Positions 25,573 through 37,929 of a stretch of DNA of 38,423 bases are shown here, one piece after another (position 1 is the first letter of the stretch; the number at the start of each line of letters is the position of its first letter). Origin of the DNA: a virus (taxonomy: Duplodnaviria > Heunggongvirae > Uroviricota > Caudoviricetes); IMG/VR virus record IMGVR_UViG_2778261634_000009, positions 1 to 38,423 of that record; one strand, 5' to 3'. The notes beneath the pieces were generated by a model. The model made no database searches, was not told where the DNA came from, and saw only the letters and a list, made by a program, of their open reading frames with translations. Made by a program: the position numbers and the translations under genes.

Positions 25573-26991
25573 ATGCCGATTCAGCAACTTCCGCTTATGA
25601 AAGGTGTCGGCAAAGACTTCCGAAACGCCGACTATATCGACTATCTGCCAGTGAATATGCTGGCAACCCCCAAAGAAATCCTTAACAGCAGCGGATATCT
25701 TCGTTCATTCCCGGGCATTGCCAAACGTTCTGATGTGAACGGCGTATCGCGCGGCGTCGAGTACAACATGGCGCAGAGTGCTGTTTATCGCGTGTGTGGC
25801 AGCAAGTTGTATAAGGGCGAAAGCGAAGTCGGTGACGTCGCCGGAAGTGGTCGCGTATCAATGGCGCATGGTCGAACATCTCAGGCTGTAGGCGTTAATG
25901 GTCAACTGGTCGAGTATCGCTATGATGGCACGGTTAAAACAGTCTCAAACTGGCCTACAGACAGCGGATTCACGCAGTATGAGTTAGGTTCGGTTCGTGA
26001 CATTACGCGCTTACGTGGGCGTTATGCGTGGTCAAAAGACGGCACTGATTCATGGTTTATCACTGACCTTGGAGATGAATCGCACCCTGACCGATACAGC
26101 GCACAATATCGCGCAGAATCGCAGCCTGACGGCATCATCGGCATCGGAACATGGCGAGACTTCATCGTCTGCTTTGGTTCATCGACGATTGAATATTTTT
26201 CCCTGACTGGTGCAACCACTGTTGGTGCCGCTTTGTATGTCGCCCAGCCATCGTTGATGGTGCAAAAAGGAATCGCCGGAACCTACTGCAAAACGCCGTT
26301 TGCTGATTCGTATGCGTTCATCAGCAATCCGGCAACAGGTGCGCCGTCTGTTTACATCATCGGCTCCGGTCAGGTATCACCAATCGCCAGCGCGAGCATT
26401 GAGAAAATACTACGCTCCTACACTGCTGATGAACTGGCTGATGGCGTGATGGAATCGTTGCGGTTTGATGCTCATGAGTTGCTGATTATTCACCTGCCGC
26501 GCCATGTTCTTGTTTACGACGCATCTTCAAGCGCCAATGGTCCGCAATGGTGTGTGCTGAAAACAGGCTTGTATGACGATGTGTACCGCGCTATCGACTT
26601 CATTTACGAAGGCAATCAGATAACGTGTGGCGATAAGCTGGAATCGGTGACCGGGAAATTGCAATTCGATATATCTTCACAATACGAAAAACAACAAGAG
26701 CATATTTTATATTCCCCTCTAATAAAGGCTGATAACGTTTTAATAAATGACCTTGAATTAGAAACATCTGGCGGCGTGTGTGATAGAATAGATAGAATAT
26801 TTATATCAGCCACTACAGATGGGATTAATTACGGTCGTGAGCAAATGGTCGTATTACAAAAACCATTTGTATATGACAATCGCGTTTTATGGCGAAAAGT
26901 TGGTCGAGTTAGACGTCTCATTGGATTTAAATTCAGAGTTATTGCAAAAGGTCCTGTTACATTATCAGGCCTTTCTATTCGTGTAACATAA
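25573..26991 (+). CDS. tail hub protein (P22 gene 10 type)
   Basis: 472-aa ORF, same length as P22 gp10, following gene 4; last roughly 110 codons visibly AT-rich. Confidence 0.8.
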   Translation: MPIQQLPLMKGVGKDFRNADYIDYLPVNMLATPKEILNSSGYLRSFPGIAKRSDVNGVSRGVEYNMAQSAVYRVCGSKLYKGESEVGDVAGSGRVSMAHGRTSQAVGVNGQLVEYRYDGTVKTVSNWPTDSGFTQYELGSVRDITRLRGRYAWSKDGTDSWFITDLGDESHPDRYSAQYRAESQPDGIIGIGTWRDFIVCFGSSTIEYFSLTGATTVGAALYVAQPSLMVQKGIAGTYCKTPFADSYAFISNPATGAPSVYIIGSGQVSPIASASIEKILRSYTADELADGVMESLRFDAHELLIIHLPRHVLVYDASSSANGPQWCVLKTGLYDDVYRAIDFIYEGNQITCGDKLESVTGKLQFDISSQYEKQQEHILYSPLIKADNVLINDLELETSGGVCDRIDRIFISATTDGINYGREQMVVLQKPFVYDNRVLWRKVGRVRRLIGFKFRVIAKGPVTLSGLSIRVT

Positions 26992-27012
26992 ATCGAAACT
27001 CAAGGAGTAGAT

Positions 27013-27546
27013 ATGTTAAGTGAAAACGCAAAAGATATCGAAGGATATGAAGGACTGTACGCCATCACTAATGATGGTAGAGTTTACTCGCATTCAAGAG
27101 TAAATTTGAGGGGGCGTCTTATTAAGGGGAGGTGGCTGAAGCATAATCATAACGTAAATGGATATAAGTATGTGTGCTTATATAAGGATGGCGTAAAAAA
27201 GAACATACTAATACATAAGCTTGTTGCATCTCACTTTGTCGGTGGATTTGCTGAAGGGTTACAGGTTAATCATATAGATGGTGATAAGTATAATAATAAC
27301 TATCTAAATCTTGAATGGGTTACTCCATCAGGAAACATCTCACACTCATATGGATTGGAATCGAGAGGTAATGTAAAAGGAGAAAGGAATGGTAATTCTA
27401 AAATATCTAATGATGATGTCATAAAGATAAAAGAAATGGTTGCCAATGGATTTCCTCAGTGTGAAGTTGCTAAATTATTTGGAATTCACAATTCAAAGGT
27501 TAGTAGAATTGTAAATGGCAAGGCATGGAGGCATGTTAATGGCTGA
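27013..27546 (+). CDS. HNH homing endonuclease (NUMOD4 N-terminal motif plus HNH_3 core, C-terminal HTH-like region)
   Basis: [16 protein letters not shown] is the NUMOD4 signature; [11 protein letters not shown]...[20 protein letters not shown] is the HNH core; AT-rich; inserted between tail genes 10 and 26. Confidence 0.8.
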
Positions 27547-28492
27547 TTCGAATCTCAATGTGCCGGTAATCATTCAGGCTACACGGCTCGATACATCAAT
27601 ACTTCCACGCAATATCTTCTCTCAGTCGTATCTGCTTTACGTTATTGCACAGGGCACTGATGTTGGTAACGTAGCTAACAAGGCCAACGAGGCCGGACAG
27701 GGCGCTTATGACGCACAAGTCAGGAACGATGAGCAGGATGTCACCCTTGCAGACCATGAATCCAGAATTGAAGCTGCTGAAGCAACTATCATCAATCATG
27801 AACATAGAATTGCAGCAGCGGAAAGCACTCTTGCAGATCATGAAACAAGGATTACGGCTGCTGAAACAGAGCTGGCTGATCACGAGACGCGAATTGCTGC
27901 CAATGAATCTGAGTTAGCAGATCATGATGCGCGCATAACTCAGAATACAACCGATATCGACGCACTTGATACCAGGCTCACAGCGGCAGAGGGGAGTATT
28001 TCGACGCTACAAAGCACAGTTGGTGATCACTCAACAAGAATATCTGCGCTTGAGTATGCCACCACGCGCAAGAAATCAGAGGTTGTTTACTCAGGGGTAT
28101 CGGTAACAATTCCGACAGCGCCTACCAACCTTGTTAGCCTGCTGAAAACGCTCACGCCGTCATCCGGCACGTTGGCACCATTCTTCGACACCGTTAACAA
28201 CAAGATGGTTGTGTTCAACGAGAACAAAACCTTGTTCTTCAAGCTGTCGATTGTCGGGACGTGGCCCAGCGGAACCGCCAACAGGTCAATGCAGCTAACC
28301 TTTTCCGGCTCTGTTCCTGACACGTTGGTCAGCAGTCGTAATGCGGCGACAACAACCGACAACATCCTGTTAGCTACGTTCTTCAGCGTGGATAAAGACG
28401 GATTTCTTGCCACAAATGGCAGTACGTTAACCATTCAGTCAAATGGGGCGACGTTTACTGCCACAACCATCAAGATAATCGCGGAGCAGTGA
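27539..28492 (+). CDS. tail needle (P22 gene 26 type) with divergent C-terminal knob-like domain
   Basis: N-terminus [43 protein letters not shown] matches P22 gp26; central heptad repeats ADHE(S/T)RI; C-terminal about 120 aa unlike P22, Thr/Ser-rich beta-type sequence; start overlaps HNH stop. Confidence 0.85.
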
Positions 28493-28947
28493 TGATTCAG
28501 TTCAAACCAACGCGAAACATCGACCTGATAGAAGCAGTCGGAAATCACCCTGACATTATTGCCGGGAGCAACAACGGTGATGGATACGACTACAAACCTG
28601 AATGCCGTTACTTTGAAGTGAACGTGCACGGGCAGTTCGGCGGCATTGTTTACTATCAGGAGATTCAGCCGCTGACATTCGATTGCCACGCCATGTACCT
28701 GCCAGAGATTCGTGGATTCAGCAAGGAAATCGGGCTGGCGTTCTGGCGATACATTCTGACTAACACCACCGTTCAGTGCGTCACATCGTTCGCTGCGCGC
28801 AAATTCCGCCACGGTCAGATGTATTGCGCAATGATTGGCCTTAAGCGTGTAGGAACCATCAAGAAATACTTCAAAGGCGTGGATGACGTGACTTTTTACA
28901 GCGCCACACGCGAAGAACTAATCGACTTCCTGAATCACGGGAGATAG
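28489..28947 (+). CDS. virion assembly protein in the P22 gene 14 position
   Basis: 152-aa ORF with ATGA overlap to the needle gene; assigned by synteny only. Confidence 0.5.
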
Positions 28948-33690: not shown

Positions 33691-34227
33691 TCAAACAACC
33701 CACCAGTTTGCCTGATTGGATACCAGCCTTGCAGTTTTTATGGAATTAATTATGCCATGCTCAAGAGCCTTGTTAGCATCCAAAATGGTCGAGTCTGCTA
33801 TCAGGGATGCCCACCTAATATGGGTTCCGATGTCGATATTGAACGTCTCAACGAAGCGATCAAGATCGTTATCGAGGCATTTCCCGTACTCTCTCAATCT
33901 GGCATGGTCGGCGGCTGGGGTGGCAAAGCCCCATAATAGAGGATGTAACAGGAATCTTGATAATGGGTTTGCGAAACGCTCTGAGCCAGCCAGGAAAACG
34001 ATATTAGCTATGGATTCAACATTGCTTATGTTGTGAGTTCTAACGGTAACAGGGAGTGACTTAAGAAAGTTATACGCAGTAAAACCAGCGGCAGTTTCCC
34101 CTCCCTGACTTGATATATGGATATTTAATTCAGTTGCGCCTTGAGATAATGCGGTGAGACAGTGGTTCTGAAGTTGCCCAACAGTGGCGGTGTTAACGGG
34201 GCATAAGAAATGAATTGTGTGCAGCAT
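33691..34227 (-). CDS. ClpP-family (S14) serine protease-like protein, stand-alone
   Basis: 178-aa ORF; IHISSQGGETAAGFTAY and SIANIVFLAGSERFANPLSRFLLHPLLWG align by eye with E. coli ClpP YINSPGGVITAGMSIY and [31 protein letters not shown], conserving the catalytic Ser and His positions; start codon overlaps the mnt stop (TAATG). Confidence 0.75.
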   Translation of the reverse strand: MLHTIHFLCPVNTATVGQLQNHCLTALSQGATELNIHISSQGGETAAGFTAYNFLKSLPVTVRTHNISNVESIANIVFLAGSERFANPLSRFLLHPLLWGFATPAADHARLREYGKCLDNDLDRFVETFNIDIGTHIRWASLIADSTILDANKALEHGIINSIKTARLVSNQANWWVV

Positions 34228-35826: not shown

Positions 35827-37929
35827 ATGACAGACATTACAGCCAATGTTGTTGTTAGCATGCCTTCGCAACTCTTCACTATGGCGCGTTCTTTTAAAGC
35901 CGTAGCCAATGGCAAAATTTATATCGGTAAAATTGACACGGACCCTGTAAATCCTGAAAACCAGATTCAGGTTTATGTAGAGAATGAAGACTGTTCTCAC
36001 GTTCCTGTTTCTCAACCAATCATCATTAATGCTGCTGGTTATCCGGTATATAACGGGCAGATTGCCAAATTCGTAACCGTGCAAGGCCACTCTATGGCTG
36101 TTTATGATGCGTACGGTGTGCAGCAGTTCTATTTTCCAAATATTTTAAAGTACGATCCTGACCAATTGAGACAGGAATTAAGCAATCCTGCAGATGGCGT
36201 CGGCGATGCTTTGATCGCTGTAAAACAGCCTGTTGATGGCTCGATTGCTGTAACTCAGCATGATAAAAACGCTGAGAACATCAGTGCGATTGATTTTGGT
36301 GCTAAGGGTGATGGTGTCACTAACGATGTTGCGGCTTTGCAACTGATGGCTACCAAGGTAGGTTATATCCGCCTCACGAGAGGAAGTTACTTCCTTACCA
36401 CCTCTACCCTTGATGCTCCAGTCATCTTCGAAGATGGTGCGGCTTTAGTTTCGGCGAAGAACAACACTGTCACCATCACTGGCGCTATCACCTCGATTCG
36501 TCAGTGGATATTTAAAGGTGATGGCCTGTACTCGCTGAGTAATGACACTAACAGCGGTGAAAACTCCAGGGAGATTCACGCGTCATGGTTTGGCGTATTT
36601 CCAACCGGCACAACCGAAATAGACCAGTCAACCGCGCTTAATAAGGCACTGTCCTCTCTTGGTACATCACGAGAGGGAGTCGTTCATTTTGATATTGGTC
36701 GCTATACGCTGGGAGCTGCCGTGCAGGTTCCCCGTGCGATTGAGATCAGAGGGAAAGGAAGTCGCAGGACAATTTTTAACGTAACAGCCAACGACTTCGA
36801 CGTTTTCACTCCTCAGGCTAACGGGGTTAAGTTCACTGGAATTCAGTTTGAGCCATCACCAAACCTGTCGACAGGATTCCGAAGCTCTGGACACTGGATA
36901 AACCTGTCTCAGCAACTTTGCGAGGTAGATGATGTCTGGATGGGAAGGGCATTCCAGAGCCTGAAAGTTACCGCAGGGCAGTGCAAGCTGCGACGTATAT
37001 CAGCGACCTATTCAGAGAGCGTGGGTTCTGGTTCTTATCTGATTTCAATTCAGGGATCAGATTGCTCGCTGGAAGGCGTGCACGTTGCCAGTTCAAACTT
37101 TGGTCCAACGAGGATAGTTGAGGTTGGTGGTGAAGAAACATCAAACGTGTCAAATGTCCTGGTTGATAATGTCACCTTCAATAACCCATCCATTGGCATT
37201 TCAATCAACACCACCGTGAGGGTCATATCAGGAATAATCATTCGTGCTATTCGCTGCAAAGGTAATGCAAACTATCCTGCGATTCGTTGTGTTGAGCTGA
37301 CAACATCAGGGACCGGAACAGGCAATATTAATAATGTGGTGATTGATGGAGTGACGGCTAATGAATACGTTACTCACTGCCTGCTTATTTCCCAGGGGAA
37401 TAACGGGTCAATCACCAAGGTGTCCGCGAGCAACTTTAAGGTAAATGGATCCACAGGTGTTGGGATTAACTTTGTTCAAACGCTTGGCAGACTTTCAACA
37501 ATAGTCATCGGTGACACTGTGGATGTTTCGGCATATGCAACTCCTTACCAGTACAGCGGAACAATGAGTAATGTTGTGGTGGCTGCGGAAGCTAACCCAA
37601 TTACTAACACTGCTCTATGTTACGACTACACAATTAATGATGACTCAGTTGTTTCCATTGATCTTCACAGACAAATGTTTACTGGATTCCTGATGGTAAG
37701 TGTGGGTACCGAGGAGTATGCAATTCTCGTTATAAGAGCTGCGGCAAGCCAGAGAATATTGACTGTGCAGGTTTCAGGGAACGTCAATACAACAACAGGC
37801 GTATTAACTGGAACAACCGGTGCTGATGGAAAATTTACTGTTGGGATAGCGAACAGCGCCCTCTATTTTGAGAACAGGCTTGGCAACTCTCAGCGAGTAA
37901 GTGTTTCAACACTATTTGGCATTCGTTAA
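35827..37929 (+). CDS. tailspike protein: P22-type N-terminal head-binding domain fused to a different right-handed beta-helix receptor-binding/depolymerase domain
   Basis: First about 115 aa ([34 protein letters not shown]...KYDPDQ) match the P22 gp9 N-terminal domain as remembered; remainder unlike P22 gp9 and contains a pectate-lyase-like motif [21 protein letters not shown]. Confidence 0.85.

Follow-up and report, generated by a model that had tools for sequence, protein, structure and literature searches.

A tail needle of the HS1/Sf6 knob-bearing type encoded in the late operon of a P22-like element

The DNA analysed in this study, a stretch of 38,423 nucleotides (hereafter the window), encodes at positions 27539–28492 a protein that is almost certainly (probability about 0.97) the trimeric, HS1-subtype tail needle of a P22-like (Lederbergvirus) phage or prophage of Escherichia coli, built of an N-terminal plug, a coiled-coil shaft and a distal knob that would tune the kinetics of DNA delivery. 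The needle is a typical representative of a family that has been described in detail, the Sf6 knob-bearing class (HS1 subtype), and as such is already known. Its architecture, its near-identity to solved structures, the conservation of its ligand contacts and its genomic position were all observed directly in the window. The gene, the parts of its product and the signal for its translation are as follows:

27539–28492, plus strand: tail needle gene of the HS1/Sf6 knob-bearing type (317 codons and a TGA stop, by translation)
27527–27531, plus strand: GGAGG ribosome-binding site of the needle gene, 7 nt 5' of the ATG and within the 3' end of the HNH open reading frame (direct sequence reading)
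27539–27727, plus strand: N-terminal gp26-type plug, or tail-hub-binding domain, residues 1 to ~63 (8EAP_B, 2POH, PHROG 1219)
27728–28063, plus strand: coiled-coil shaft of 16 heptads, residues 64–175 (heptad layout and predicted helix)
28064–28489, plus strand: C-terminal TNF-like jellyroll knob, residues 176–317 (4K6B, 3RWN and Foldseek; L-glutamate and phosphate contact residues conserved)

The pattern that marks this protein as a needle is not due to chance, since it was matched both by Pfam PF16532 Phage_tail_NK ('Sf6-type phage tail needle knob'), with E = 8e-108 (a score of 358 bits, the cutoff being 27), and by PHROG 1030 ('tail needle knob'), with E = 7e-136. The RefSeq entry WP_089583123.1, annotated as 'tail needle knob protein', is exactly the window needle sequence, and its 90%-identity cluster comprises 1430 members, including the HS1 protein ABV04705.1. 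Needles of 317 aa are also encoded by the isolated phages Gally, JEP4 and vB_EcoP-720R6 (97–98% identity). In a search against NCBIfam, the needle gave nothing but coiled-coil noise below threshold, and the HNH protein encoded upstream of it had no match. A suitable annotation would be 'tail needle knob protein (HS1/Sf6 type)', and the gene may serve as a marker of the P22-like late operon.

The mechanical ORF call placed the start of the needle gene at an upstream ATG (27515), which gives a product of 325 aa. We assign the start to position 27539, because all homologues begin with MADSNLN, the GGAGG motif lies 7 nt upstream, and PGAP places the start at the equivalent ATG in E. coli CUVM3. 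Translation from this codon gives 317 aa followed by TGA, in agreement with the length of about 317 aa stated in the first-pass annotation of this DNA, which had set it against the 233 aa of P22 gp26; the latter figure is confirmed by 2POH.

The N-terminus is of the gp26 type, as had been proposed in the same annotation. Residues 3–64 matched the N-terminal fragment of P22 gp26 (8EAP_B; E = 1.7e-27), the 233-aa P22 gp26 of 2POH aligned to residues 1–121 (domain E = 1.4e-41), and PHROG 1219 ('tail needle protein') spanned residues 1–111 (E = 9e-60). In total, the N-terminus and shaft of the needle matched the P22 gp26 structures 2POH, 3C9I, 4LIN, 4ZKP and 8EAP.

The plug is followed by the heptad repeats recognised in the first reading of the sequence, whose extent can now be given: every seventh position from L70 to I168 is hydrophobic, which corresponds to 16 heptads across residues 64–175, and the shaft displays a 14-residue super-repeat, LADHExRIxAAExxL. 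The motif ADHETRI, earlier counted three times, occurs only twice (positions 99 and 113); ADHESRI and ADHDARI are each present once, and the related NHEHRI and GDHSTRI were also found. The heptads lie within a continuous helix (residues 42–175) predicted in a monomer model; to judge from the 97% identity to the HS1 needle and from the trimeric crystal structures, the shaft is probably trimeric.

Threonine and serine account for 16.8% and 10.9%, respectively, of the last 137 residues, and the Thr/Ser-rich strings quoted in the first-pass annotation are indeed present in the C-terminal part. The suggestion that this part is a knob, and not a P22-type tip, was borne out: residues 165–317 are 98–99% identical to the crystallised knobs of HS1 (4K6B; E = 1.3e-89) and Sf6 (3RWN; E = 2.9e-89). 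The tip of P22 gp26 (P22 residues 141–233) consists of a triple beta-helix and an inverted coiled coil. No significant alignment to this tip was found past needle residue ~184 in comparisons with 2POH, 3C9I and 4LIN, and the stretches beyond residue 184 gave i-Evalues of only 9e+03 and 1.5e+04 against P22 gp26 structures, i.e. the window needle does not carry a P22-type tip.

The residues in contact with L-glutamate or phosphate in the HS1 knob (E181, K235, S283, D285, L290, K312 and S266-R267-N268, in HS1 numbering; PMC3741392) are all found at the HS1 positions of the window protein and are thus conserved. Position 305, described as the sole variable position of the knob (alanine in HS1 and serine in Sf6; PMC3741392), is occupied by threonine.

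An AlphaFold2 model of the full needle chain, run as a monomer with a 30-sequence alignment (mean pLDDT 82), revealed a single unbroken helix at residues 42–175 followed by a beta-rich domain, with pLDDT values of 93–98 at residues 61–160. The low values of the N-terminal 40 residues (45–49) are to be expected, as this segment folds only in the trimer or in the complex with the hub. When the model was compared with the PDB using Foldseek, the chains of 4K6B and 3RWN ranked first (E ~1e-23, target-normalised TM 0.86–0.87), followed by TNF/C1q-like jellyrolls and PRD1 P5. The check proposed at the outset, namely structure prediction and comparison with known knobs, came out in favour of a knob: the beta domain superposes on 4K6B and 3RWN, and the C-terminus neither continues as a coiled coil nor shows similarity to the tip of P22 gp26. 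The prediction gave nothing beyond what was already evident from the 98–99% identity to two crystal structures.

Within a late operon of P22-like organisation, the needle gene is flanked by homologues of gp10 and gp14, with an HNH gene intercalated before it. The neighbouring genes, and the tailspike gene discussed below, are:

25573–26991, plus strand: gp10-type tail hub, or 'packaged DNA stabilisation', gene (PF11134, E = 1e-280)
27013–27546, plus strand: free-standing NUMOD4/HNH_3 homing-endonuclease-like gene, 177 aa (PF07463 and PF13392; C-terminal HTH)
28492–28947, plus strand: gp14-like DUF2824 gene (PF11039, E = 6e-53)
35827–37929, plus strand: tailspike gene, 700 aa

The order of the late genes in the window is coat, gp4, gp10, the HNH gene, needle, gp14, gp7, gp20, gp16, ant and tailspike. 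The stop codon of the HNH gene overlaps the needle start by 8 nt, while the stop codon of the needle gene and the ATG of the gp14-like gene have one base in common (TGATG); the latter arrangement is also seen in PGAP annotations.

The HNH insertion is the only element of this neighbourhood that may be worth further work, on the origin of mosaic joints in the virion gene clusters of P22-like phages. Its product was matched by the PADLOC homing endonuclease model HEase PDLC03687 (E = 1e-31), and the GC content of the gene is 35.6%, compared with 47% for the whole window. Sf6, Gally, Louie and HS1 lack the HNH gene at this site, and their gp10 stop codon overlaps the needle ATG (TAATG); the intact, HNH-less gp10/needle junction of HS1 or Sf6 includes …AGGATTGAGTAATGGCGGATTCG…. 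The last ~340 nt of gp10 (26650–26991) are only 53–63% identical to the corresponding parts of HS1, Sf6, Gally and Louie, as against 91–100% for the first 1080 nt, and the identity of the needle gene to that of HS1 returns to 92–99% from the first codon. The divergent 340-nt 3' end of gp10 goes together with the NUMOD4 gene in each of the three elements that were compared, namely the window, E. coli 503440 and E. coli CUVM3.

The HNH gene of strain 503440 is 99.8% identical to that of the window, but it is placed upstream of a 233-aa, P22-type needle, the first 68 residues of which are identical to those of the window needle. A second, unrelated HNH gene of 164 aa occupies the same junction in E. 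coli XJ23PTE1 (L007 2527–3021, equivalent to 26992–27538 of the window); its 3' end recreates the …AGGATTGAGTAATG junction of the native arrangement, and the end of gp10 upstream of this gene is recoded. A search of 5426 complete E. coli genomes detected the NUMOD4 gene in 36 of them, and the exact protein sequence was seen on 922 contigs; among deposited phages, no protein exceeds 50% identity to it. Alignment of the first ~220 nt of the needle gene from HNH-plus and HNH-minus elements revealed no clean co-conversion tract 3' of the HNH gene: the polymorphisms near the needle start are scattered, and the HNH-plus CUVM3 is the most divergent in this part.

This pattern suggests that the gp10/needle junction may be a recurrent target of homing endonucleases, and it has the look of a mosaic joint that serves as a hot spot for them. 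It is further conceivable, albeit rather doubtful in our view, that cutting and repair by such free-standing enzymes helps to shuffle the shaft/tip modules of the needle and the gp10 C-terminus among P22-like phages, and that the HS1-type needle beside the NUMOD4/HNH gene in the window would be the product of such an exchange. In the literature searched, the coverage of which was incomplete, we found no account of a homing endonuclease gene between gp10 and gp26.

As regards the role of the needle itself, we infer trimerisation, plugging, release on infection and an effect on kinetics from the published work on P22, Sf6 and HS1. After packaging of the DNA, three needle chains would assemble into a fibre, whose N-terminal ~60 residues would enter and plug the channel of the hexameric gp10 tail hub, keeping the DNA in the head. 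Residues 64–175 would form a three-stranded coiled-coil shaft of 16 heptads that extends past the tailspikes (the HS1 shaft has been modelled at ~210 Å), and residues 176–317 the distal TNF-like jellyroll knob, probably with one L-glutamate at each of the three subunit interfaces. During infection the tailspikes would bind and cleave the O-antigen, and it is the knob that would first reach the outer membrane. Release of the needle would then open the channel for the ejection proteins and DNA. The knob would tune the kinetics of DNA delivery, and most probably does not decide the host.

The last point bears on a different view of the knob, in which it is a host-range determinant, i.e. a receptor-binding domain by which the phage is matched to the envelope of a given host; the first-pass annotation had likewise taken the needle as probably reflecting host-range adaptation. 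We consider this unlikely. The knob does sit at the distal tip, which should be the first part to touch the outer membrane, and its fold is common to the receptor-binding PRD1 P5 and to TNF/C1q-like lectins. In addition, the knobs of Klebsiella aerogenes and Serratia prophages are only ~76–78% identical overall, and in 2013 the knob was absent from P22-like phages of Salmonella, an absence that was taken by the authors to hint at a selective disadvantage in that host (PMC3741392). However, P22 virions provided with the HS1 knob, or with the Sf6 shaft and knob, are stable and infect Salmonella with normal titre and infectivity, and the rate of K+ release alone is changed: release is slower with the HS1 knob, and a foldon tip slows it far more (PMC3741392). 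The authors concluded that the knob confers no species specificity (PMC3741392).

Comparison of the elements themselves leads in the same direction. The knob is nearly invariant (97–99% identity) across E. coli and Shigella elements, which is the opposite of host-range diversification, and knob-type needles are now known in the Salmonella phages S9-5 and ABTNLsp11242 (58% identity). Because the 700-aa tailspike of the window aligns to that of HS1 over the first 120 residues only, i.e. over the head-binding part, with unrelated bodies, the same near-identical knob rides with unrelated primary receptor-binding modules. A host-range role of the knob is therefore not supported, and neither is the earlier claim; the determinant of host range is the tailspike, and a subtler role of the knob at the outer membrane is possible.

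It is highly improbable that the window carries a defective prophage in which the gene is decaying and no longer makes a functional needle. Remnants of this kind do occur, since more than 100 E. coli genomes carry a P22 remnant of several genes that includes an Sf6-type needle gene (PMC3741392), and a 2-kb query covering the 3' end of gp10, the HNH gene, the needle gene and the 5' end of gp14 matched 1241 of the 5426 complete genomes. In the window, however, the needle ORF is intact, since comparison with HS1 revealed neither a frameshift nor a truncation, and the late operon in which it resides is complete (terminase, portal, scaffold, coat, gp4, gp10, needle, gp14, gp7, gp20, gp16, ant and tailspike).

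The extra length of the needle relative to P22 gp26 lies in two parts of the protein. The first-pass annotation attributed the difference from P22 gp26 to a longer C-terminal domain, which is correct in that the tip is ~49 aa larger than that of P22, but ~35 of the 84 extra residues belong to five additional heptads of the shaft. Relative to Sf6 gp9, the 35 extra residues lie wholly in the shaft (aligned blocks of 28 and 7 residues, i.e. five heptads). Needle length thus changes in heptad quanta via the shaft, and not in the tip domain alone; the indels of the family are blocks of 7 or 14 residues within the repeat region. In a survey of 110 full-length representatives out of the 120 best clusters (proteins P0001–P0120), the knob needles ranged from 254 to 345 aa, with 101 of the 110 on the series 254+7n, of which 317 is a common class.

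These lengths correspond to roughly 7 to 20 whole heptads in the shafts of knob needles, a range wider than the 11–16 cited in 2013. Knob-type needles are now known in Salmonella phages as well as in Klebsiella aerogenes, Serratia, Aeromonas and Shewanella, whereas in 2013 they were noted in Escherichia and Shigella only. A fresh expansion of the shaft by slippage was considered and dropped, as the DNA that encodes the 14-residue repeats has diverged too far for a recent duplication; Tandem Repeats Finder detected no DNA tandem repeats at 27400–28600.

The least likely alternative is that the 317 aa represent a new extension of the shaft or tip, specific to the window element, and not a known allele. 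The excess of 35 aa over Sf6 gp9 and 84 aa over P22 gp26 speaks for it, but it is already refuted by the identity to HS1, whose needle is equal in length and heptad number, and by the RefSeq cluster (90% identity, n=1430). The 317-aa forms of Gally, JEP4 and vB_EcoP-720R6 and the place of this length among the 101/110 representatives of the 254+7n series likewise speak against it.

Some other features of the window deserve mention. The N-terminal head-binding domain of the tailspike (about 120–190 aa) alone matches deposited phage genomes. The receptor-binding body had no match in 50,697 deposited phage records, and none was found beyond the first 28% of the tailspike; since this body is absent from the 50,697-genome collection, the glycan specificity of the tailspike is unrepresented among isolated phages. 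When the right-hand 20 kb (18000–38423) was compared with the 5426 complete E. coli genomes, no match covered at least 80% of the query; the best one reached 78% coverage at 96.6% identity, in 6 pieces. The window element is a mosaic in which P22-like modules, common in themselves, are joined in a new combination.

A 178-aa ClpP-like ORF is located between gp16 and ant (33691–34227, minus strand; Pfam CLP_protease E = 4e-12). Its product is similar to head maturation proteases related to ClpP, with scores below the NCBIfam cutoffs, and PADLOC revealed no defence-system match for this ORF or its neighbour. In P22, the region between gp16 and ant carries accessory genes of the sieA/mnt/arc type.

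Among known systems, the closest counterpart of the window needle is that of the HS1 prophage of E. coli HS (EcHS_A0316, WP_000785558.1), which also has 317 aa and 16 heptads and is identical at 309 of 317 positions (97%) in a gap-free alignment. The two proteins differ by eight substitutions (V21I, L84I, E100D, D107A, N128D, A137T, S269A and A305T), only the last two of which, S269A and A305T, fall within the knob. Leavitt et al. 2013 described the HS1 needle as a protein of 317 aa, whose N-terminal domain is 98% identical to that of Sf6, whose helical core contains 16 heptads, compared with 11 in Sf6 and P22, and whose shaft is 67% identical to that of Sf6 (PMC3741392). From residue ~174 onwards, the HS1 knob is 99% identical to that of Sf6, and its 1.1 Å structure shows a homotrimer with a TNF-like jellyroll fold, in which three L-glutamates occupy the interfaces between subunits and the tip holds a phosphate (PMC3741392). 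The loci are distinguished by the gp10/needle junction, as the gp10 stop codon overlaps the needle ATG in HS1, whereas the HNH gene separates the two genes in the window.

Gp9 of Shigella phage Sf6, for which a knob structure (3RWN) and a cryo-EM structure of the tail (PMC9728967) are available, has the three-part architecture in common with the window needle, and its N-terminal 68 aa and knob are nearly identical. It is a protein of 282 aa with 11 heptads, so that the window shaft is 35 residues longer, and the shaft sequence is more divergent. P22 gp26 (2POH, 3C9I) and the HK620 needle (5BU5) are homologous in the N-terminal plug, the early coiled coil, the gene position and the plug function, but both are proteins of 233 aa, and the C-terminal tip of P22 (residues 141–233) is without similarity to the window knob. 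HK620, which the first-pass annotation had cited as an example of a knob-bearing phage, was a mistaken choice, as its needle ends in a P22-type tip (subtype A; PMC3741392) and has no knob. Finally, the jellyroll knobs of PRD1 P5, EDA-A1, C1QL1 and BclA belong to the same fold class as the window knob (Foldseek E = 1e-5 to 1e-4, target-normalised TM 0.5–0.64), but with a sequence identity of merely 7–17%, which reflects likeness of fold and not membership of the family.
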